From: Escherichia coli
Lineage (GTDB): Bacteria; Pseudomonadota; Gammaproteobacteria; Enterobacterales; Enterobacteriaceae
Reading direction: 5' to 3' (one strand)
DNA length: 64,000 bases
NCBI RefSeq assembly: GCF_001677475.2
Contig: NZ_CP015229.1
Part shown: positions 4,495 through 32,244 of the stretch, piece after piece
How positions within the stretch are numbered: position 1 is the first letter of the stretch
How the letters are laid out: each line of letters starts with the position of its first letter
Program-made: the position numbers and the translations under genes
Notes under the pieces: model-generated
The model's database searches: none
What the model saw: only the letters and a program-made list of their open reading frames with translations
Told to the model about the DNA's origin: nothing

Positions 4495-5046
4495 ATGAAT
4501 CGCACATCCCTGATTAAATTAATTCATGTCGCCCGTCGTGATCTACAACTCGACGATGACACTTACCGCGCCTTTCTGGTGCAGTGCACAGGCAAGACCA
4601 GCTGCCGCGAGCTGTCCGTTGCACAACTGGAACGTGTGCTCGATGCCATGAAAGAGTGCGGTTTTAAAAAGCAGAAAAAACATCCCCGCCGTCGCTTTAA
4701 GGGGCATGTCACACCGCGCGAGAAGATTTATAAAATCTGGCAGCAGATGTTTCAGGATGGCTTTATCGCTGATGGCAGCGATGTCGCGCTGGACAAATAC
4801 GTTGCACGCCTGACGGCCAGACGTAATGGCGGTCAGGGGGTTTCCACGCTGGCCTGGTGTCACGGGGAATCGTTGCAGGTTGTGCTCGAAACGCTCAAGC
4901 AGTGGCACATGCGCTGCATCCGGGAAGCCTTTGCCCGACATGGTGTGCCGTTACCTGCAAGCCCATCCGGGCGGGAACTACGCGGATATGATGCACTGAC
5001 CAGTGCATATGCCCGCGCACGAAACAGCGGGAGAATTGCTGTATGA
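4495..5046 (+). CDS. gemA: GemA-like protein (Mu gp16 family)
   Basis: 183 aa; GGAGG RBS; position before mor. Confidence 0.75.
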   Translation: MNRTSLIKLIHVARRDLQLDDDTYRAFLVQCTGKTSCRELSVAQLERVLDAMKECGFKKQKKHPRRRFKGHVTPREKIYKIWQQMFQDGFIADGSDVALDKYVARLTARRNGGQGVSTLAWCHGESLQVVLETLKQWHMRCIREAFARHGVPLPASPSGRELRGYDALTSAYARARNSGRIAV

Positions 5047-5492
5047 AACAGATGAAAGAGCAGGATTTATTCGAAGACCTTCGGGACGACAGCGTTCTGG
5101 AATATCTTCATGATTACCAGGAAAACACCGCTTATCCGGCGTTACTTTCTGAACTGAACGCACTGCTGCGTAAAGAGCTGGCCCGGATTGGCGCAGACCC
5201 TGCTCATTCCCTTGAGCTGGTTGTGGCGATTTGTCGCCATATCGGCGGGATGCAGGTTTATGTTCCGAGGGGGAATATTCTGGAGAATCTTGTCCGGGAT
5301 ATGCGTATCTGGCGTGATTTTAACGGTCATAATATTCCTGAACTGGTTCAGCGTTACGGGGTGACGTATAAAACCGTCTACAAGGCCATCAAACGGATGC
5401 GACGTCTGGAGCGCAATAAATACCAGCCGGATTTGTTTTACCCCTCCCCGAACCTGCCTCACCCCGTTCGTCGTCCACCACGACGCCCTTAA
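5043..5492 (+). CDS. mor: Mor-like middle operon regulator
   Basis: 149 aa; ATG overlaps gemA stop; ...GGMQVYVPRG...YGVTYKTVYKAIKRMRRL resembles Mu Mor with longer C-terminus. Confidence 0.8.
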   Translation: MKQMKEQDLFEDLRDDSVLEYLHDYQENTAYPALLSELNALLRKELARIGADPAHSLELVVAICRHIGGMQVYVPRGNILENLVRDMRIWRDFNGHNIPELVQRYGVTYKTVYKAIKRMRRLERNKYQPDLFYPSPNLPHPVRRPPRRP

Positions 5493-5498
5493 TCAATG

Positions 5499-5522
5499 AA
5501 GCCGGTAAATCCGGCTTTTTTT
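5499..5522 (+). terminator. rho-independent terminator-like hairpin (AAGCCGG-TAAAT-CCGGCTT plus T7)
   Basis: 7-bp stem, 5-nt loop, run of 7 T; 7 nt after mor stop; identical copy at 13234-13257. Confidence 0.55.
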
Positions 5523-5577
5523 ATGCCTCCGGCACCATGAAGCAGACCACGTTTAAATCTGCTTCACAGGTGCTTTT

Positions 5578-6174
5578 ATGGAAAATCAAAAATTCTCCCC
5601 GGCCTTTGAACATGCGCTGAATTTCATTCTGCGTCCCGATATCGAAGGCGTCTATGCCAATGACCCCACTGACCGTGGCGGTGAAACCAAATACGGCATT
5701 TCTGACCGCCGCGACGGTGTGACTGACGGCAAAACCGATGTCAACGGCGACGGCAAACCGGATACCCGCATCAGGGATTTAACCCGCGAACAGGTTGCTC
5801 AGATTTACTGGCGCGATTACTGGCTGCCTGCCGGATGTGACCAGTGGCCTGATGGCGTGGCGATGTTTGTGTTCGATGCGGCGGTTCAGCATGGCGTTAA
5901 AAAAGCTATCAGGATTTTGCAGGAAGCCGCGGATGTGGATGCTGACGGCATCATCGGCCCCCGTACCCGTAAGGCCGTGAGCCTGTCCACCCCGGACTGG
6001 CTGCTGGCCCGCTGCATTGTCCGTCGTTCCCGCTTTTATGCCGACATCATCAAGTCCAAACCCGCCCAGGGCAAATACCTGAACGGCTGGTTTAACCGCA
6101 TGGAAAAGCTGACCGACGCCTGTCTGGAAATCATCGATACCCCTCCAGGCATCATGTCCGCCACGCGGGGGTGA
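5578..6174 (+). CDS. endolysin, GH108-like N-terminal domain plus peptidoglycan-binding domain
   Basis: 198 aa; motif EGVYANDPTDRGGETKYGIS typical of GH108 muramidases. Confidence 0.8.
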   Translation: MENQKFSPAFEHALNFILRPDIEGVYANDPTDRGGETKYGISDRRDGVTDGKTDVNGDGKPDTRIRDLTREQVAQIYWRDYWLPAGCDQWPDGVAMFVFDAAVQHGVKKAIRILQEAADVDADGIIGPRTRKAVSLSTPDWLLARCIVRRSRFYADIIKSKPAQGKYLNGWFNRMEKLTDACLEIIDTPPGIMSATRG

Positions 6175-10768: not shown

Positions 10769-12336
10769 ACCAGAAACAACAGGCCGGGGCCGCACGCCGT
10801 CTGCTGAACCCGGCAACCGGTGAGGAAGACACGCTGAAAAAAGAGGCGCTCAACGAAGCACAGGCCCGTCCGCGTCAGGCTGGCGTGCGTCCGGCCTCGC
10901 CGGGCATCAGCATCGCCTCCGGGCTGAATCCCGGCAGGCTGGCAGGCATTCTGCGCAATGCCGCCAACGGTATCACGCGTGATTTTTTTATCCTTGCCGA
11001 AGAGATGGAAGAACGCGATTTGCATTACGCCTCGGTGCTGCGCACCCGCAAGCTGACGGTGGCGGGTATTGAACCGGTGGTGGTGGCTGCCAGTGATGAC
11101 GATGCCGACGTACAGCTGGCGGATGCCATACGTGCGCTGATGGAAGCCCCGCAAATCCCCGAGCTGATGTTTGATTTGCTCGACGGGCTGGGAAAAGGCG
11201 TGGCGGTCTGTGAAATTTTGTGGAACACCCGCAACAACCACTGGGTGCCCCGTGATTATGAGTGGGTTGATCCCCGTTTTCTGAAAGCCGAAAAGCCCAC
11301 TCTGCGCCGGTTCCGCCTGCTGACTGACGATGAACCGGTGGATGGCGTACCGCTGACACCGGGAAAATTCATTGTTCACCAGCCGCGTCTGAAATCCGGT
11401 CTGCCGCTGCGTAACGGTCTGGCCCGTCTGGTGGCTGTGATGTATATGCTGAAATCCTTTACCGTGCGTGACTGGTGGGCATTTGCGGAAAAATTCGGCA
11501 TTCCGGTTACGGTGGGGAAATACGGTCCCAACGCCACGGAGGAGCAAATCCGCGTGCTGATTGATGCGATTGCCTCCATTGCCTCAGATGCCGGGTGTGC
11601 CATTCCGCAGTCCATGCAACTGGAGATGCAGGAAACCGCCAGCCGGAATAACGGCGGCGCGCTGTTCCGTGAAATGGCTGAATGGTGCGATGCGCAAATC
11701 AGTAAAGCCGTACTGGGGCAGACCATGACCACAGATAATGGCAGTTCGCGTTCACAGGCGGACGTGCACAATCAGGTGCGCATGGACATTGTGCGCTGGG
11801 ACGCGCGACAGCTGGCTAACACGCTGAATGAATATCTGGTGCGTCCCTACATCGAGGCCAACTACGGGCCACAGGCGCACTATCCCCGTGTTGTTCTGCG
11901 TATCAGTGAAGCCGAAGATCTGAAGGCGCTGACTGATGCTCTGGTGCCACTGATTGACCGGGGGATGCGGGTTCAGGAATCGGAGCTGCGGGATCGGTTC
12001 GGCCTGGCGGAACCGGACGAAGGGGCTGATGTTCTGCATCCGGTGTCTGCCGGAATGTCAGGTGATATGGCGATGAACCACGAGCGCGTCGCCCTGAACC
12101 GGGAACACCCCGACGAACTGGCACAGATGGTGGATGATGCCCTGCGTGACTGGCAGAAAACCGGCGAGGCGTTCACAAACCCGGTGCTGACACTGGCGCA
12201 GGAATGCGACAGTTTTGATGACTTTCTGAAACGCCTGCCTGAGCTTCAGGAAACGCTGAACGCGGACGACTTTGCCCTGCAACTGGCGGAGGTGTGCTTT
12301 AAGGCCCGTGCGCTGGGAGACACTGGTCATGCGTGA
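10765..12336 (+). CDS. portal protein (Mu gp29 / DUF935 family)
   Basis: 523 aa; GTG start after GAGGGAGG RBS; after terminase. Confidence 0.8.
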   Translation: MNQKQQAGAARRLLNPATGEEDTLKKEALNEAQARPRQAGVRPASPGISIASGLNPGRLAGILRNAANGITRDFFILAEEMEERDLHYASVLRTRKLTVAGIEPVVVAASDDDADVQLADAIRALMEAPQIPELMFDLLDGLGKGVAVCEILWNTRNNHWVPRDYEWVDPRFLKAEKPTLRRFRLLTDDEPVDGVPLTPGKFIVHQPRLKSGLPLRNGLARLVAVMYMLKSFTVRDWWAFAEKFGIPVTVGKYGPNATEEQIRVLIDAIASIASDAGCAIPQSMQLEMQETASRNNGGALFREMAEWCDAQISKAVLGQTMTTDNGSSRSQADVHNQVRMDIVRWDARQLANTLNEYLVRPYIEANYGPQAHYPRVVLRISEAEDLKALTDALVPLIDRGMRVQESELRDRFGLAEPDEGADVLHPVSAGMSGDMAMNHERVALNREHPDELAQMVDDALRDWQKTGEAFTNPVLTLAQECDSFDDFLKRLPELQETLNADDFALQLAEVCFKARALGDTGHA

Positions 12337-13093
12337 AACCCTCATCCCGAAAGAGGCGCTGGCGTGGCTGAAGGCGAAGAAGCTGCGCCCCGGTTTTGAT
12401 TACCGGGATGTGTGGCGGGAAGAACACCGGAACAGCTTCACCGTGGCAAAAATGCTGCAACTGGATTTGTTGTCGGATGTGAAATCCCTTGTGGAAGACG
12501 CCCTGCAAAGCGGGCAGACGTTCAGCGAGTTCCGGGAGATGCTGCAACCGCTGCTGATAAAACGCGGATGGTGGGGCGTACAGGAGATGGATGATCCGCT
12601 GACGGGCGAAAGGCGCACCGTGCAACTGGGCAGCGACCGCCGCCTCCGCACGATTTTTGACACCAACATGCGCACCGCCCGCGCGGCGGGCCAGTGGGAA
12701 CGCATTCAGCGGACAAAGCGGGCCATGCCGTATCTGATTTATGAGCTGGGGCCATCCCGCGAGCACCGGGCGGAGCATGTGAAATGGGCGCGTCTGTGTC
12801 TGCCTGTAGACCACCCGTTCTGGCAGACGCATTTCGCCCCTAACGGCTGGGGCTGCAAATGCACCATCCGTCAGGTCAGCCGTGGTGAGTATGCGCAACT
12901 GGCGGCACAGGGCACCATTCACACCGAAGCGCCGGAAATCAGGACTGTCCGCTGGGTGAACAAACGTACGGGCGAAGAGGAAGAGGTGCCGGAAGGGATT
13001 GATCCGGGCTGGAACTACAATCCCGGTATAAACCGTGAGCAGGAGCTGGCGCGCCAGCTGGCGACAAAACAGGCCCGTTTTGACAGTGAGTAA
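12329..13093 (+). CDS. head morphogenesis protein (Mu F family)
   Basis: 254 aa from ATG 12329; after portal. Confidence 0.8.
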   Translation: MRETLIPKEALAWLKAKKLRPGFDYRDVWREEHRNSFTVAKMLQLDLLSDVKSLVEDALQSGQTFSEFREMLQPLLIKRGWWGVQEMDDPLTGERRTVQLGSDRRLRTIFDTNMRTARAAGQWERIQRTKRAMPYLIYELGPSREHRAEHVKWARLCLPVDHPFWQTHFAPNGWGCKCTIRQVSRGEYAQLAAQGTIHTEAPEIRTVRWVNKRTGEEEEVPEGIDPGWNYNPGINREQELARQLATKQARFDSE

Positions 13094-13115
13094 CCCTCCC
13101 GCCGTAAATCCCCCT

Positions 13116-13141
13116 GAAACGCATCAGAAACGCGTTTTTTA
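13116..13141 (+). terminator. terminator-like hairpin after F
   Basis: GAAACGC...GCGTTTT stem followed by T-run, 23 nt after F stop. Confidence 0.4.
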
Positions 13142-13168
13142 TTCTGATGGCGTGAATGTGCATTCTGA

Positions 13169-13210
13169 CGTTTTTGAAGATGCTGTGGCGTTTTTGAAGG
13201 GGTTTTGAAG
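13169..13210. repeat. three direct repeats of CGTTTTTGAAG-like motif
   Basis: Copies at 13169, 13189, 13202 between F and I. Confidence 0.4.
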
Positions 13211-13231
13211 GGGGTATTTCCCCGTTTTCAG

Positions 13232-13257
13232 TGAAGCCGGTAAATCCGGCTTTTTTT
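13232..13257 (+). terminator. second identical copy of the 26-bp hairpin plus T7 element
   Basis: TGAAGCCGGTAAATCCGGCTTTTTTT identical to 5497-5522; 50 nt upstream of I start. Confidence 0.55.
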
Positions 13258-13306
13258 CTGCCTTCCGCATACTGACCGTCGGTAACCCCAGACGACGGAG
13301 ACTGAC

Positions 13307-14263
13307 ATGCAACCGGAACTGCTGGCGCTGTGTTTTTCCCTGCCAGAACCCATCCCTGAGCTGACACCTGCTCAACTGCCGGAATGGCTCGAACTTGTCC
13401 CTGCGGGTGAGTTCACCGGGCGCGATGGCCGGACGTGGATTAACCGCAATCCGCATGAGGTGGTTGCCCGTTCGTCCGGCATCAAAATTCCGGTGGATAT
13501 TGAACACGCCACCGAAATTAAAGGCCCGCGTGGTGAAGATGCTCCGGCGTATGGCTGGGTGGAAGAACTGCGGGTGACGGACAGCAGCACCATTGAAGGG
13601 CGTGTTGTCTGGAGCGAGTCCGCCCGCTGGATGCTGAGCGAGCGCCGCTACCGCTATTACAGCCCGGCGTTTTTCTTTGACGCGGAAGGCGTAGTGACGC
13701 GCCTGTCCAGCGTCGGGCTGACCAACAAACCTAACCTGGATTTTCCTGCACTGAATACGGAGAAAAACCTGATGACAGTACCTGTGCAAATCACCGGCCT
13801 GCTTGGGCTGGCTGAATCTGCCACGGTGGACGATACCGTGGCCGCCATTAAACAACTTCAGGAGAACGAACAGGTGGCGCTGAACCGCGCACAGACACCT
13901 GATCTGACGAAGTTTGTGCCGGTGGAAACCCACAATCTGGCCCTGAACCGTGCCGAAACCGCAGAACAACGCCTTCAGCAACTTGAAGAGAAGGAAGCAG
14001 AAGCGCTTGTGGATGCGGCCATCGAAGCCGGAAAAGTGGCCCCGGCAAACCGTGACATGTTCCTTGCCACCTGCCGCACGGAAGAAGGCCGCAAACAGTT
14101 TGCGGAGTACACCAGAGGCGCACAGCCGCTGGTGAACAACGACAAGCCCAGCCAGGGCAAGGATAAACCCGCGCAGACACTGACCGACACCGAACTGGCG
14201 ATGTGCCGCAGCATGGGTATTACCGGGGAAGAGTTCCTCGCCGCTAAACCGAAACAGGAGTAA
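13307..14263 (+). CDS. head protease/scaffold protein (Mu I family)
   Basis: 318 aa; GGAG RBS; between F and major head gene. Confidence 0.8.
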   Translation: MQPELLALCFSLPEPIPELTPAQLPEWLELVPAGEFTGRDGRTWINRNPHEVVARSSGIKIPVDIEHATEIKGPRGEDAPAYGWVEELRVTDSSTIEGRVVWSESARWMLSERRYRYYSPAFFFDAEGVVTRLSSVGLTNKPNLDFPALNTEKNLMTVPVQITGLLGLAESATVDDTVAAIKQLQENEQVALNRAQTPDLTKFVPVETHNLALNRAETAEQRLQQLEEKEAEALVDAAIEAGKVAPANRDMFLATCRTEEGRKQFAEYTRGAQPLVNNDKPSQGKDKPAQTLTDTELAMCRSMGITGEEFLAAKPKQE

Positions 14264-17341: not shown

Positions 17342-18817
17342 ATGTCGCTGGGTTCAATTCCTGATGATATCCGCGTCCCGCTCGTCGTGATCGATATTGA
17401 CAATTCACAGGCGCTGGACAGTGCATCCGCGCAAAGCCGAAAAATTCTGGTCATGGGCCATGCGGTATCGTCCGGCAGCGCAGACGCCCTGTCACTGACC
17501 CGCATCACCAGTGACAGCCAGGCAGAGCAGCTTTATGGCAAAGGGTCTATGCTGGCTGAAATGCTCAAAATACTGCGTCGTGCCAACACGTACACGGAAA
17601 CCTGGGCAATGCCGGTTGCCGCACCTGTTGGCGCTGCCGCAAAAGCCACGCTGACCGTGCTGGGGACAGCAACAGAGGCCGGAACGGTGGCACTACTGAT
17701 TAACGGTGTCTCCGTTCAGGTGGGCGTGAGCGCCGGGGATACCAAAGAAAACATTGCAAAAGCCATTGCTGATGCGGTGACGAAAAAGCCTGCCACGCAG
17801 GTGGCCGCTGCGGTGAAGGATGATGCCACGGATACCGTGGAGCTGACCGTGAACTGGCACGGCGTCACCGGCAACGGTGCCGACGTTCGCCTGAACTACT
17901 ACACCGGTGAAGCCTTCCCGGCAGGTGTGAAGGTGACCGCAACCGCGTTTACCGGCGGCACCGGGACACCGGAAATGGCAGACGCCGTTGCGGCCATCGG
18001 CCCGGAGTGGTTTACCGATATCATCGCCCCGTTCACCGACACGCAAAGCCTGAACACCCTGCGTGATGAACTGCTGAACCGCTGGGGGCCGCTCAGGATG
18101 ATGGAAGCGCAGCTATGGACGGCGTTTCGTGGCACGCACGGCGAGACAGGCACGTTTGGTGAAACCCGCAATGACTGGCTGATTAGCTGTATCGGCACCA
18201 ACCTGTCACCGCATCCGGCGTGGATGTGGGCCGCGTCATACGGCGCAACGGCAGCGTATCACCTTGCCATTGACCCGGCGCGTCCGCTTCAGACGCTGGT
18301 CCTGACCGGCATTCTGCCGCCTGCGCGTAATGTTCGCTGGGATATGCCGGAACGTAACCTGCTGCTGCATGACGGCATTGCCACGCACATGGTGGACGCC
18401 GGGGATAACGTCTGCATAGAGCGTGAAATCACCATGTACCGGGTTAATCAGTACGGTGATGCGGATGTGTCGTACCTGGATGTGCAGTCGCCCGCCACGC
18501 TGGGCCGTATCCGTTACATCATCAAAAACCGTTTCTCGAACCGTTATCCGCGCCACAAGCTGGCGGATGATGACGTGCTGGACTCGCTGGATGCGGGGCA
18601 GCCGGTGATGACGCCGAAGCTGTGCACCGCAGAGCTGCTGGATATCTGCCAGACCGAACTTATCCCGGCAGGCCTTGTGGAGAACTTCAGCGATTACAGG
18701 GACACGCTTCAGGTGACACGCGACAGCAGCGATAAAAACCGCCTGAACTTTATCTGCCACCCGAATCTGGTGAACCAGCTGCGTGTGCTGGCAGGCCTGA
18801 TTCAGTTCAGAGTTTAA
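17342..18817 (+). CDS. contractile tail sheath protein (Mu L family)
   Basis: 491 aa; AGAGGAAG RBS; followed by tube gene. Confidence 0.85.
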   Translation: MSLGSIPDDIRVPLVVIDIDNSQALDSASAQSRKILVMGHAVSSGSADALSLTRITSDSQAEQLYGKGSMLAEMLKILRRANTYTETWAMPVAAPVGAAAKATLTVLGTATEAGTVALLINGVSVQVGVSAGDTKENIAKAIADAVTKKPATQVAAAVKDDATDTVELTVNWHGVTGNGADVRLNYYTGEAFPAGVKVTATAFTGGTGTPEMADAVAAIGPEWFTDIIAPFTDTQSLNTLRDELLNRWGPLRMMEAQLWTAFRGTHGETGTFGETRNDWLISCIGTNLSPHPAWMWAASYGATAAYHLAIDPARPLQTLVLTGILPPARNVRWDMPERNLLLHDGIATHMVDAGDNVCIEREITMYRVNQYGDADVSYLDVQSPATLGRIRYIIKNRFSNRYPRHKLADDDVLDSLDAGQPVMTPKLCTAELLDICQTELIPAGLVENFSDYRDTLQVTRDSSDKNRLNFICHPNLVNQLRVLAGLIQFRV

Positions 18818-22788: not shown

Positions 22789-23858
22789 TGGGATCCGTGA
22801 TTCTTACCGTTGACGGTAAACTGTGGGAAGGCTGGACGGAAATGTCCGTCAGCCGTTCCCTGAAGGCGATTGCCGGTGAGTTTGATCTCAGTGTGACAAC
22901 ACGCTGGTCAGCGGCGGCACCGCGCGTGATTCGTGAGGGGCAACCCTGTACGGTCAGGCTGGGTGCGGATACCGTGCTGACGGGGTATATCGATGATTTT
23001 ATTCCCAGCTATGACGCGGACAATGTGGAAATTCGTGTCATGGGGCGCGACAAAACCGGCGACCTGGTGGACTGCTCTGTGGTGCATTCGTCCGGGAAAT
23101 GGAAAGGCGTGCGGCTTGAACAGGTGGCGGCGGATGTCTGCCGCCCGTTCGGAATAACCGTCATCACGGAAACCCCGACCGGGGAGGCGTTTGCGTCCGT
23201 TGTTCTGGAACAGGGTGAAACGGGTTTTGAACTGCTCGACCGGCTGGCAAAACAGCGCGGTGTTCTGCTGACGTCTGACGGAGCGGGTAACCTGATTATC
23301 ACCCGCGCTTCTTCCGTTCGCGCGGGCGTGTCACTGGTGCTGGGAAAAAATATCCTCGCCGCCCGTGGGCGCTTCAGCTGGCGGGAGCGTAACAGTCAGT
23401 ACATCATCAAGGGCACCACCAGTGCCGGTGGCAAACTGTGGGACAGCCAGCCTGCCCCGATGGTGGGCGGTCGCCAGTACATCACCGAAGACCCGGAAAT
23501 TAACCGTTACCGCCCGCGCATTCTGGTCAATGAAGACAGTCTGACCGTGGGCGGTGCCAGCATTCGCGGGGAATGGTACAAAGCCCGGATGCTGGGAGAG
23601 GCCCGCACGACGGAAATCACGGTGGCAGGCTGGCGCGAACAGGGCGACAGCGGTCCGCTGTGGCAGACCAACCGCCTTGTCGATATCGACGACAGCATTC
23701 AGAACCTGAAAACCACCTGGCTGATATCCGGGGTGACCTGGACGGATGGTGCACAGGGGCGGATGACGGTTCTGGCGCTGGTTCCGCCTGAATCACTGGA
23801 TATGCCGGAAATGAAAGCGAAGACGAAGAAAACAAAGGCGGTGGCCACATGGGATTAA
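22788..23858 (+). CDS. baseplate hub / tail protein (Mu P family)
   Basis: 356 aa; overlapping start. Confidence 0.75.
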   Translation: MGSVILTVDGKLWEGWTEMSVSRSLKAIAGEFDLSVTTRWSAAAPRVIREGQPCTVRLGADTVLTGYIDDFIPSYDADNVEIRVMGRDKTGDLVDCSVVHSSGKWKGVRLEQVAADVCRPFGITVITETPTGEAFASVVLEQGETGFELLDRLAKQRGVLLTSDGAGNLIITRASSVRAGVSLVLGKNILAARGRFSWRERNSQYIIKGTTSAGGKLWDSQPAPMVGGRQYITEDPEINRYRPRILVNEDSLTVGGASIRGEWYKARMLGEARTTEITVAGWREQGDSGPLWQTNRLVDIDDSIQNLKTTWLISGVTWTDGAQGRMTVLALVPPESLDMPEMKAKTKKTKAVATWD

Positions 23859-24385
23859 ACGCCATTGCCCGCCGTCTGCGACTGATGGTTGACCGTGCCA
23901 TTGTCCGCATGGTGTCTGACAGTCTGGAGCGGCAGAACCTGCAAATCCAGACGCTGGCAGATGCCACCGACGACGACGTGGAACGCTTCCAGAACTACGG
24001 TTTTACATCCGTGCCGCCGGAAGGTTCTGAAGCCATAGTGCTGGCCGTTAGCGGGCGGCGTGACGGGCTGGTTGCCATCGCGGTGGAGGACAAGCGATGT
24101 CGCCCGAAAGGGCTGTCCCCCGGCGACGTCCGGCTGTATCACCAGGACGGCAAATCACATATCACGTTAAGGAAAGGCGGAATTATTGAAATCACAGGGG
24201 AACAATTAAACGTTTCAGGGAAAACGGTAAATCTCACCGCCGACGAATTACTGGCTATAAATGCAGGAAATATGAAATTCGTCGGTCCCTGTGAGTTTAC
24301 TGAAGATGTCAGAATCAACGGCAAATCTTTCAGCGAACACATTCATAAGGACGGCGACAATGAGAATACATCACCGCCCGTATGA
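23849..24385 (+). CDS. baseplate spike protein (gpV-like)
   Basis: 178 aa. Confidence 0.65.
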   Translation: MGLNAIARRLRLMVDRAIVRMVSDSLERQNLQIQTLADATDDDVERFQNYGFTSVPPEGSEAIVLAVSGRRDGLVAIAVEDKRCRPKGLSPGDVRLYHQDGKSHITLRKGGIIEITGEQLNVSGKTVNLTADELLAINAGNMKFVGPCEFTEDVRINGKSFSEHIHKDGDNENTSPPV

Positions 24386-26472: not shown

Positions 26473-27468
26473 ATGTTTCACGTGGACAATAATACGGGTG
26501 TGCCTGTTATGCCGCCTGTTGCGGCTGAATTAAGCAAAACAACGCTTTATTTCACCGAAGGCGGGAACGGTATTCCACCCACTTATCCAGGACCAGACTG
26601 GTTTAATATTATTCAGTCTGAATTACTGAAAATTCTCGAAGAAGCCGGAATAACGCCGGATAAAGCAGATACCGGTCAGATAATGGCAGCCCTGAAAAAA
26701 CAGTTTATTACGAACAGTGGTTCAGCCGGAGCTATTGCCGGATTAACCGGTGAGAATAATACGTTCCCGTATTTTACCGGCGAAGACACAATGGCATTAA
26801 CGCCGCTCAGTGCGTTTGTGCGCAGTATTCTTGGAAAAAACAGCGGCAGTGAGTTTATTAAAGCAATTGGCCTGTCACCGGACACCCTTTTATCATCAGG
26901 GCGAATAACAGCATTAAGCGGTGGCTCACAGGGAGCAACCGGACTTCAGATGTACGAAGCGTATAACAACGGCTATCCCATTCCATACGGCAATGTGCTG
27001 CATCTGAAGGGGGGGACAGCGTCAGGTGAAGGCGAATTACTGATTGGCTGGAGTGGCACAAGTGGTGCACATGCCCCGGTTTACATCCGCTCAAGACGAG
27101 ACAATGACGAGGCGGAATGGTCTGAATGGGCACAGGTTTTTACCTCAAAAGACAGTTTCAACGCAGCAACTGCTACAAAACTCCAGACAGCCCGCAAGAT
27201 TAATAATGTGGCATTTGATGGCACCAGCGATATCACCATCAGCAGTACCGATTCTGGTGCTGTGCGTGATTTCAGATACACCAGCGAAGTGTTTCACAAT
27301 CCCGGAGGTAACGAAATCACCTGGACGTTTCGCGCGCCCTCAGGTTGCGTTTTGTCAGGTATTTACGTTCAGGAAACGGGAAGAAGTTCTTCGGATAACA
27401 TCGGCGGCGTGTATTACAAACAAACTCAGGTTTATATCAATGGCTCATGGCGCACCGTATCCGGTTAA
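26473..27468 (+). CDS. tail fibre protein (short)
   Basis: 331 aa; GGAG RBS; followed by chaperone-like gene. Confidence 0.7.
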   Translation: MFHVDNNTGVPVMPPVAAELSKTTLYFTEGGNGIPPTYPGPDWFNIIQSELLKILEEAGITPDKADTGQIMAALKKQFITNSGSAGAIAGLTGENNTFPYFTGEDTMALTPLSAFVRSILGKNSGSEFIKAIGLSPDTLLSSGRITALSGGSQGATGLQMYEAYNNGYPIPYGNVLHLKGGTASGEGELLIGWSGTSGAHAPVYIRSRRDNDEAEWSEWAQVFTSKDSFNAATATKLQTARKINNVAFDGTSDITISSTDSGAVRDFRYTSEVFHNPGGNEITWTFRAPSGCVLSGIYVQETGRSSSDNIGGVYYKQTQVYINGSWRTVSG

Positions 27469-31814: not shown

Positions 31815-31837
31815 GCAGCGGCCAATGCCGCTGTTTT

Positions 31838-31838: not shown

Positions 31839-32244
<406 letters not shown>

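Follow-up and report, generated by a model that had tools for sequence, protein, structure and literature searches.

A probable Mu-type strong gyrase site adjoining a probable Mor-type operator and terminator in the F–I interval of a Mu-like Escherichia coli prophage

Phage Mu's strong gyrase site (SGS) serves as the reference substrate in mechanistic and structural studies of DNA gyrase, and is the textbook case of a phage that recruits a host topoisomerase to organise its own genome. Here we compare with it the region between genes F and I (positions 13,094–13,306) of a Mu-like prophage in a 64,000-nucleotide stretch of the E. coli contig NZ_CP015229.1; this stretch is called the window, and coordinates refer to it unless another record is named. 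We think it probable that the F–I region consists of two adjoining and slightly overlapping elements, a Mu-type SGS (core and right arm) and then a terminator, Mor operator and promoter of I (P_I). Binding and cleavage by gyrase, binding by Mor, and the start and termination of transcription are what we infer, from sequence, in this proposal.

In Mu the SGS covers about 150 bp: a core of 50 bp has on its left an arm that can be dispensed with (−65 to −26) and on its right an arm that is protected from +26 to +85 (PMC6463007). Phased bending signals lie in the first 40 nucleotides of the right arm, which are essential (PMC6463007); the repeat motifs of the arm induce bending, and the arm wraps the GyrA pinwheel (PMC10052514). 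In structures obtained by cryo-electron microscopy the minor grooves of the AT repeats face the C-terminal domain and the GC repeats point outward (PMC11626157). The central position of the site is needed for optimal transposition, and the site helps the prophage ends to pair (PMC10052514, PMC3820752). Among the contributors to the Mu prophage domain are Fis, IHF and HU (PMC3820752). The activators of the Mor/C family bind dyads as dimers, centred at −43.5 (PMC2582627, PMC4287176). Mor binds its dyad at −51 to −36 in the Mu promoter Pm (PMC4287176), the MuC consensus is TTAT-N5-6-ATAA (PMC12867686), and the segment from −60 to +8 is sufficient for C-dependent activation at Mu Plys (PMC2582627).

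The direct repeats and the gyrase site of Mu

A preliminary description of the F–I region listed a hairpin after F, three direct repeats, two further hairpins and a duplicated element. All of these are present, the hairpin after F only as imperfect repeats. Two of the direct repeats are exact and the third is one T shorter, and the cluster is far beyond chance:

13169–13179, no strand: direct repeat 1, CGTTTTTGAAG (C-GTTTTTGAAG), exact; homologous to Mu ATTTTTTAAAAC at 17890–17901
13189–13199, no strand: direct repeat 2, CGTTTTTGAAG (C-GTTTTTGAAG), exact; homologous to Mu ATTTTTAAAC at 17911–17920
13200–13210, no strand: direct repeat 3, GGGTTTTGAAG, one T fewer; homologous to Mu TATTTAAC at 17925–17932

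The repeats are phased TTTTGAAG units. The core of repeat 3, GGTTTTGAAG, lies at 13201–13210, and repeats 2 and 3 together form an 11-bp tandem duplication. No further exact copy of the 10-mer exists in the window; three matches with at most one mismatch within 50 bp arose in none of 300 first-order Markov simulations of the window, and the stricter three-unit spacing pattern is unique in it on both strands. Close relatives of the prophage (95–99% identity) were found in 45 of 5,426 complete E. coli genomes and as 19 IMG/VR contigs. Among 20 close relatives repeat 2 has no variable column and repeat 3 has two singleton variants (13200 and 13210).

Might the repeats be a neutral product of slippage? 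A tandem duplication such as that of repeats 2 and 3 is what slippage would leave. Across 13185–13213, however, only two columns vary among the 20 relatives, each as a singleton, against 29–35% of third codon positions, and phages with I proteins of 27–57% identity retain the three-unit architecture. We regard a neutral origin as extremely improbable.

In the Mu reference record (L003) a ‘gyrase cut site’ is marked at 17879/17880, within the G–I intergenic region. Immediately to the right of this cut Mu reads ATTTTTTAAAAC-gcgccacggg-ATTTTTAAAC-cgg-TATTTAAC, in which the first spacer is N10. These are three T-run/AAA units, at +10 to +55 from the annotated cut, and their spacing equals that of the three units in the window. 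We anchored an alignment of 9 phages on repeat 2 and transferred the Mu cut to the window (offset 4721 bp), where it falls near 13158/13159, give or take a few bp. Measured from this predicted cut the centres of the A/T tracts stand at +16, +36, +47.5, +58.5 and +69, within 2 bp of those that we count in Mu (+16, +36, +48.5, +59.5 and +71). Left of the cut a purine-rich RTRNRAT(G/C) block occurs in Mu, in Klebsiella phage Kp4866-3, in L049, L056 and L093, and in the window (GTGAATG). Core and right arm are thus homologous to the Mu SGS, in register with its mapped cleavage. The anatomy of the predicted site is as follows:

13134–13184, no strand: predicted SGS core, −25 to +25, with repeat 1 in its right half (from the Mu cut annotation, the anchored alignment and the anatomy in PMC6463007)
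13185–13245, no strand: predicted SGS right arm, +26 to +85 (from periodicity, the Mu tract counts, PMC6463007, PMC10052514 and PMC11626157)
13211–13223, no strand: GGGG-TATTT-CCCC inverted repeat (fold z −2.0 versus shuffles)
13117–13149, no strand: imperfect inverted repeats AAACGC/GCGTTT (13117–13137) and CATCAGAA/TTCTGATG (13122–13149) (z −1.6)

In the predicted right arm the A/T tracts (repeats 2 and 3, TATTT and TTTTCA) alternate with G/C blocks and are phased every 10.5–11.5 bp; the part that corresponds to +26 to +65, about 13185–13225, holds repeats 2 and 3, TATTT and TTTTC. Among the roughly 32,000 positions of the 32-kb prophage part, 13187–13228 ranks first for AT/GC periodicity in 42-bp segments, the one segment length at which these phased bending signals come out on top. 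The period is 11.3, and the power is 12.0 as against a mean of 1.9 (standard deviation 1.5). As a control, the right arm of Mu ranks 2nd to 4th within Mu.

The GGGG-TATTT-CCCC hairpin of the preliminary description is there as a sequence, but it folds only marginally better than its shuffles (z −2.0). Among close relatives 8 of 15 alignment columns at 13214–13227 vary, an indel included. It probably represents a single A/T tract of the right arm, set between G/C blocks, rather than a conserved hairpin. A hairpin at 13116–13141, taken earlier for the terminator of F, fares worse: the imperfect inverted repeats exist, but the terminator scan makes no call, the fold has a z of −1.6, and relatives carry stem-breaking changes at 13124. 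We rejected it as a terminator that was neither called, stable nor conserved; by position, 13117–13149 is the equivalent of the SGS left arm.

Within the same stretch, by our own reading, the non-coding 13122–13136 after F (CATCAGAAACGCGT) matches in 14 of 15 bases CATCAGAAAACGCGT, the 3′ end of Mu gene G (L003 17823–17837), and may be the remnant of a G gene that formerly adjoined the SGS. The G homologue of this lineage lies elsewhere: in the relative L002 a G-like gene (23402–23944) is found downstream among head-completion genes.

If the phased tracts are the signal, need gyrase be its reader? Phased A/T tracts give curvature of themselves, and Fis, IHF and HU act in the Mu prophage domain (PMC3820752), so that curved DNA or a Fis, IHF or HU site might stimulate P_I or organise the domain without gyrase. 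But the homologous Mu sequence lies, by experiment, in the gyrase-protected right arm (PMC6463007, PMC11626157), and by eye we see no IHF consensus, no scored scan for Fis or IHF motifs having been made. We hold it unlikely that such roles stand in place of gyrase; they are compatible with gyrase wrapping, as additions rather than alternatives.

How widespread is this arrangement? Three T-run/RAA(G/C) units upstream of I, spaced by about 20–21 and then 11–13 bp, are found in Mu, in the Mu variant of strain SE11, in Kp4866-3 and in IMG/VR contigs. In a BLAST search of E. coli genomes, 13171–13216 is 96% identical (44 of 46 bases) to the SE11 variant (L001 4001–4046), and the same short match falls in the G–I intergenic region of SE11 and of two other strains. 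Kp4866-3 has the units TTTTTGAAC and a spacer, GCGCCACGGC, that shares 9 of 10 bases with the GCGCCACGGG of Mu; judged by its sequence, this phage is a bridge between the Mu and window forms of the site. The architecture is present in the IMG/VR contigs L049, L050 and L056, whose I proteins are 56–57% identical to that of the window, and in L093, L103 and L108, where I identity is about 27% and two of the three have a fourth unit. Prophages of the O157:H7 Sp18 type carry phased TTTCTAAC/TATTTAAC/CTTTAAAA units at the equivalent place.

Across the G–I region the SE11-type variant shares about 85% identity with Mu, yet it has the window-type TTTTTGAAG arm and not the TTTTTAAAC of Mu. This suggests that its right arm is a small mosaic patch, and that SGS arms have been exchanged between distant Mu-like phages. 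The I proteins of the Mu lineage (SE11 variant) and of this phage are 27% identical; since the 46 bp are 96% identical all the same, the right-arm cassette is apparently both conserved and exchangeable between lineages.

As in Mu, the site is near the genome centre and upstream of I. The relative L002 has a prophage of 33,990 bp (4497–38486) with Mu-type left and right ends, and its repeats lie about 900 bp left of the centre. In seven near-full-length IMG/VR contigs I starts at 46–49% of the length, and in Kp4866-3 the site is at about 48% of the genome. The window begins about 3 kb inside the prophage; with the left end beyond the window, an estimate from the right end at 31919 puts its site at about 46%. 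Sequence homology and spacing, together with three independent measures (phasing, conservation and central position), lead us to conclude that what the repeats most likely represent is a Mu-type SGS, in its core-proximal part and right arm.

Host DNA gyrase would bind this site and cleave near 13158, and the right arm (about 13185–13245) would wrap around the C-terminal domain of GyrA. The T-run/GAAG repeats, together with the TATTT and TTTTCA tracts, would act as the phased bending signals, so placed that their A/T minor grooves face the protein. If the analogy with Mu holds, processive supercoiling from a near-central site may then help to unite the prophage ends for replicative transposition after induction. 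A Mu phage deprived of the SGS shows a delay of about 100 min.

The duplicated dyad and the candidate transcription signals of gene I

Downstream of the repeats, and slightly overlapping the predicted right arm, lie the candidate signals for transcription:

13228–13267, + strand: 40-bp element with Mor-type dyad AAGCCGG-TAAAT-CCGGCTT, hairpin 13233–13253 with T7 tail, and spacer (repeat match, fold, Pm match)
5493–5531, + strand: the other copy of the 40-bp element, past the Mor-family stop codon (5492) and ahead of the lys ATG (5578) (repeat match)
5043–5492, + strand: gene for a Mor-family transcription activator, candidate binder of the dyad (Pfam PF08765, E 3.6e-30)
13267–13272, + strand: CATACT, candidate −10 hexamer of P_I (CAnACT(G) conservation)
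13276–13299, + strand: leader hairpin CCGTCG...CGACGG, arms 13276–13281 and 13294–13299 (z −1.7)

A duplicated 26-bp element had been noticed before; it is real and larger than was claimed. The exact 26 bp (13232–13257 = 5497–5522) lie inside a 40-bp match at 92.5% identity. The window contains two copies of the element, where chance would give none, and 3 of its 40 columns vary within the family. The hairpin GAAGCCGG-TAAAT-CCGGCTT with its T7 (13233–13257) has an 8-bp stem, a 5-nt loop, a folding energy of −12.8 kcal/mol and a z of −3.9. By sequence and fold it is an intrinsic terminator, the one canonical example in the F–I interval (13233–13253 + T7) and the sole hairpin there that stands clearly above shuffles; its copies follow the mor stop and the F gene. 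A literature search for a lys terminator found no paper.

With such a hairpin at hand, could the repeats themselves act in RNA, belonging to an attenuator, to a structured 3′ end or to a small RNA from the F–I interval? The whole interval does fold somewhat above shuffles (z −2.0), repeats 1 and 2 are able to pair with the help of many G-U pairs, and an Rfam scan of 12900–13500 returned a weak match to sroD (22 bits, E 0.065) as its sole match. This match, however, is far under the gathering score of 50 bits and probably comes from the terminator hairpin; repeats 1 and 2 could not pair in Mu, where the units are TTTTTTAAAAC and TTTTTAAAC; and what is conserved across phages is A/T–G/C phasing, not complementarity. 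Action in RNA is in our view very improbable.

What protein might recognise the duplicated element? The window sequence AAGCCGGTAAATCCGGCTTTTTTT agrees in 23 of 24 bases with the dyad region of Mu Pm, AAGCCGGTTAATCCGGCTTTTTTT (L003 9177–9200), and the Mu sequence just past mor, AGTAAAGCCGGTTAATCCGGCTTTTTTT, is the sole dyad of the Pm region. The Mor-type dyad has a cognate activator: the window encodes one Mor-family protein and no second one, and its identity is 63% with Mu Mor and 32% with Mu C. In Kp4866-3 and L049 the motif AAAGCGGTTAATCC is kept without a perfect stem or a T-run, which argues that protein recognition, and not termination alone, is under selection. As judged from these matches, the duplicated element is the more likely late-activator site, a Mor-type operator that would double as an intrinsic terminator.

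The preliminary description had instead proposed the three direct repeats as the site array of the late-gene activator. Its general reading holds good in that the interval is a dense, helically phased protein–DNA interface next to the I promoter, but the assignment to the late activator is probably wrong. An array of Mor/C-family sites driving P_I would be in keeping with repeats that lie upstream of the I operon, helically phased and under constraint; each unit also contains TTGAAG, which by our own reading loosely resembles a −35 hexamer. Yet sites for Mor and C are dyads (PMC2582627, PMC4287176, PMC12867686), whereas the repeats are direct and have neither a dyad nor TTAT-N5-6-ATAA. They lie at about −111 to −67 from the inferred start of P_I, while −60 to +8 suffices at Mu Plys. 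Nor does a regulon show itself, for no copy of the repeats is found upstream of lys or elsewhere in the 64-kb window. The 46 bp are near-identical in the Mu variant, yet the only activator of the window differs (63% to Mor, 32% to C). Finally the Pm-like dyad, 25 bp downstream, is a better candidate. An activator array at the repeats is decidedly unlikely.

Just past the F stop, 13100–13112 (GCCGTAAATCCCC) shares GTAAATCC with the Mor-type dyad 136 bp downstream, and in Kp4866-3, too, AGGCGGTAATCCGCCT directly follows the stop of F. Either the likeness is chance, or a further site for the activator or for termination, in degenerate form, could lie here on the opposite flank of the SGS.

Where would transcription of I begin? 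A promoter scan found no sigma-70 −35/−10 pair in the F–I interval. At the place of CATACT, Mu has CAAACT, SE11 and L049 have CACACT, and Kp4866-3 has GACACT. By our own reading CAAACT in Mu is spaced as ATAA-N24, as are TAGACT of Plys and TAAGAT of Pmom. Given the conserved CAnACT(G) and this spacing in Mu, CATACT is likely to be the −10 hexamer of P_I. Repeat 1 was also considered as a Pmom-like −10 (GTTTTTGAAGAT, compare GTTTTTTAAGAT of Mu Pmom) and rejected: the last T of the hexamer is not kept in the Mu SGS (TAAAAC), and no promoter was called there.

The inverted repeat CCGTCG...CGACGG that had been noted before the ribosome-binding site of I is present at 13276–13281/13294–13299, with a marginal fold (z −1.7). 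Its 3′ arm runs into the GGAG Shine–Dalgarno sequence of I (13297–13300), and a transcription start 7 nt past the −10 would fall within its 5′ arm. The equivalent hairpin has a z of −3.8 in Mu and −4.3 in Kp4866-3. A hairpin follows the −10 in every lineage, with differing sequences (CCGTCG/CGACGG, CTGCTCA/TGAGCAG, TGTCCGTC/GACGGACA, TCTGCAT/ATGCGGA and TCTGCAC/GTGTGGA), and 4 of 20 close relatives carry a pair-breaking change in it. It might stabilise the leader, control translation or provide read-through transcripts with a 3′ end. The leader of lys has a parallel hairpin at 5539–5565, GAAGCAGA...TCTGCTTC (z −2.8), which starts about 8 nt past the duplicated element.

We propose, then, that 13228–13306 joins the end of a lys-to-F transcription unit to the start of the I unit. 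The dyad and its T7 would be both terminator and operator for the single Mor-family activator of the phage, followed by CATACT, the leader hairpin and the ribosome-binding site of I. The copy at 5493–5531 would close the early/mor unit and open lys; that at 13228–13267 would close lys-to-F and open I. The Mor-family gene stands directly before the lysis gene lys (ATG 5578), and between mor and lys (5043–5581) the window has no separate C-like gene. The lack of a C-like gene at this position suggests that the Mor-type activator drives the lys and I operons directly. The order there is one Mor-family gene and then, directly, the dyad/terminator cassette and lys; in L002 (12157–13154) an extra 165-aa gene annotated as ‘hypothetical’ lies between Mor and lys.

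At +66 to +85 the predicted right arm, in its distal part, overlaps the dyad/terminator, which lies about 70–95 bp from the predicted cut; this raises the possibility of exclusion or coupling. SGS and late-transcription signals might be physically fused, so that gyrase wrapping and Mor binding or termination are mutually exclusive or coupled; this is a tentative idea, to which we give a small chance. One option is that the terminator would shield gyrase on the SGS against read-through transcription; alternatively, occupancy by gyrase would gate the expression of head genes until replication is under way.

Several observations weigh against the account given here of the SGS and of P_I. The strict three-unit pattern was found in just 6 of 60 more distant Mu-like loci. 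The AT/GC periodicity, top-ranked with 42 bp only, falls outside the top five with windows of 53–84 bp. In the 18 bp around the predicted cleavage, 50% of the columns vary among close relatives, and the 10 bp to the right of the predicted cut vary both within the family and between phages; a variable cut region fits the degenerate cleavage preference of gyrase, and makes the predicted cut point approximate. A scan with the published 133-bp gyrase consensus, by exact and S/W matching, failed its positive control, the Mu SGS not being top-ranked in Mu, and was discarded. According to a review, among the alternative sites tried as replacements for the Mu SGS, which included other strong gyrase sites and sites of Mu-like prophages, only that of the O157:H7 Sakai prophage promoted Mu replication (PMC10052514); homology is thus no guarantee of the strength of a site. 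For the promoter part, the centre of the dyad is 24 bp from CATACT and hence near −36, not at −43.5 as in Mu Pm, and on the + strand no extra Mor-type dyads stand ahead of the tail/baseplate genes or mom.

Partial palindromes at 26738–26750 and 13437–13445 (minus strand) lie inside coding regions and were judged to be chance.

The prophage and its neighbourhood

The genes that bound the interval, and with them the Mor gene and a Mu-type portal gene (Pfam), identify the prophage as Mu-like and transposable:

12272–13093, + strand: gene F, open reading frame for a head morphogenesis protein like F of Mu (Pfam PF04233 Phage_Mu_F, E 1e-14); its stop codon is the upstream boundary of the F–I intergenic region
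13307–14263, + strand: gene I, open reading frame for a Mu-like protease/scaffold (Pfam PF10123, E 4e-44)

Homology to the E. coli prophage relatives ends at 31836, and the window lacks the Mu-type attR that these relatives have. From 31837 there follows an 83-bp stretch with three ATCTTGAA(T/A)A repeats, terminating in ...GCGCGCTTTA. From 31920 to at least 36000 the sequence is 98–100% identical to P1-like phage-plasmids (about 95–100 kb), with genes that include an Icd-like gene, the KilAC antirepressor and ash. Since attR is absent and P1-like sequence begins at 31920, the Mu-like prophage appears to be inserted in a P1-like phage-plasmid, with a divergent right end.

In an E. coli O157:H7 prophage of the Sp18 type (L109), 556–635 on the minus strand, between F and G, is annotated by RefSeq as ‘tRNA-OTHER’.

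Comparison with known systems

The F–I site is a new example of a known element, and current understanding is not overturned. Its use would be as a natural SGS variant, in which the spacing and phasing of Mu are kept while the unit changes from TTTTTAAAC to TTTTTGAAG; with its variable core and its shorter distance to the promoter it offers a ready-made test of the right-arm features that matter. It also calls for caution in annotation: where direct repeats are phased in the central intergenic region of a Mu-like prophage, they ought to be taken for a gyrase site and not for an operator array. The Pm-type (Mor) dyads before lys and I suggest a transcription cascade of two tiers rather than three. 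The points of interest are, in short, the exchangeable 46-bp arm, the overlap of SGS arm and activator site, and Pm-type dyads directly before late operons.

The gyrase sites of the plasmids pSC101 and pBR322, like the gyrase motif defined genome-wide (Sutormin et al. 2018), follow the same general principle as the window, a cleavage core with AT/GC signals on its flanks that recur about every 10.5 bp (PMC6379681). The plasmid sites differ in that they have no sequence homology to the window and, according to a review, cannot replace the Mu SGS (PMC10052514). Closer is the Sp18 SGS of E. coli O157:H7 Sakai (Oram and Pato 2004), which lies downstream of G and upstream of I, has phased units and can replace the Mu SGS according to the same review (PMC10052514). 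In Sp18, however, all three units are about 11–13 bp apart, with no 20-bp gap; BLAST of the window site against O157:H7 Sakai-type prophages gave no sequence match, and the likeness is one of architecture alone.

The dyad resembles that of Mu Pm (Artsimovitch and Howe 1996) in 23 of 24 bases, in having a copy directly after mor, and in an activator that is 63% identical. It differs in that the window cassette precedes lys and I, late genes that are C-dependent in Mu; in the lack of a C gene between mor and lys; and in the distance from the dyad centre to the candidate −10, 24–25 bp in the window as against about 30 bp in Mu. The comparison with the C-dependent Mu P_I that the preliminary description had suggested holds for the position relative to gene I, for the CAnACTG −10 region and for the hairpin that follows before the ribosome-binding site; it breaks down at the MuC-type half-site (ATAA-N24 before the −10), in place of which the window has a Mor/Pm-type dyad.

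The closest counterpart is the SGS of Mu itself. The differences are that the unit is TTTTTGAAG in the window and TTTTTAAA(C) in Mu, that the gene upstream is F and not G, and that the flanking proteins are about 27% identical to those of Mu. The interval from the cut to the −10 of P_I is about 30 bp shorter in the window, and for this reason the distal right arm overlaps the activator dyad/terminator. Both sites are intergenic, just upstream of the protease/scaffold gene I and near the genome centre; both have a purine-rich block to the left of the cut and three T-run/RAA units to its right, spaced by 20–21 and 11–13 bp; and in both the A/T tracts are centred at +16, +36 and about +48, +59 and +70.

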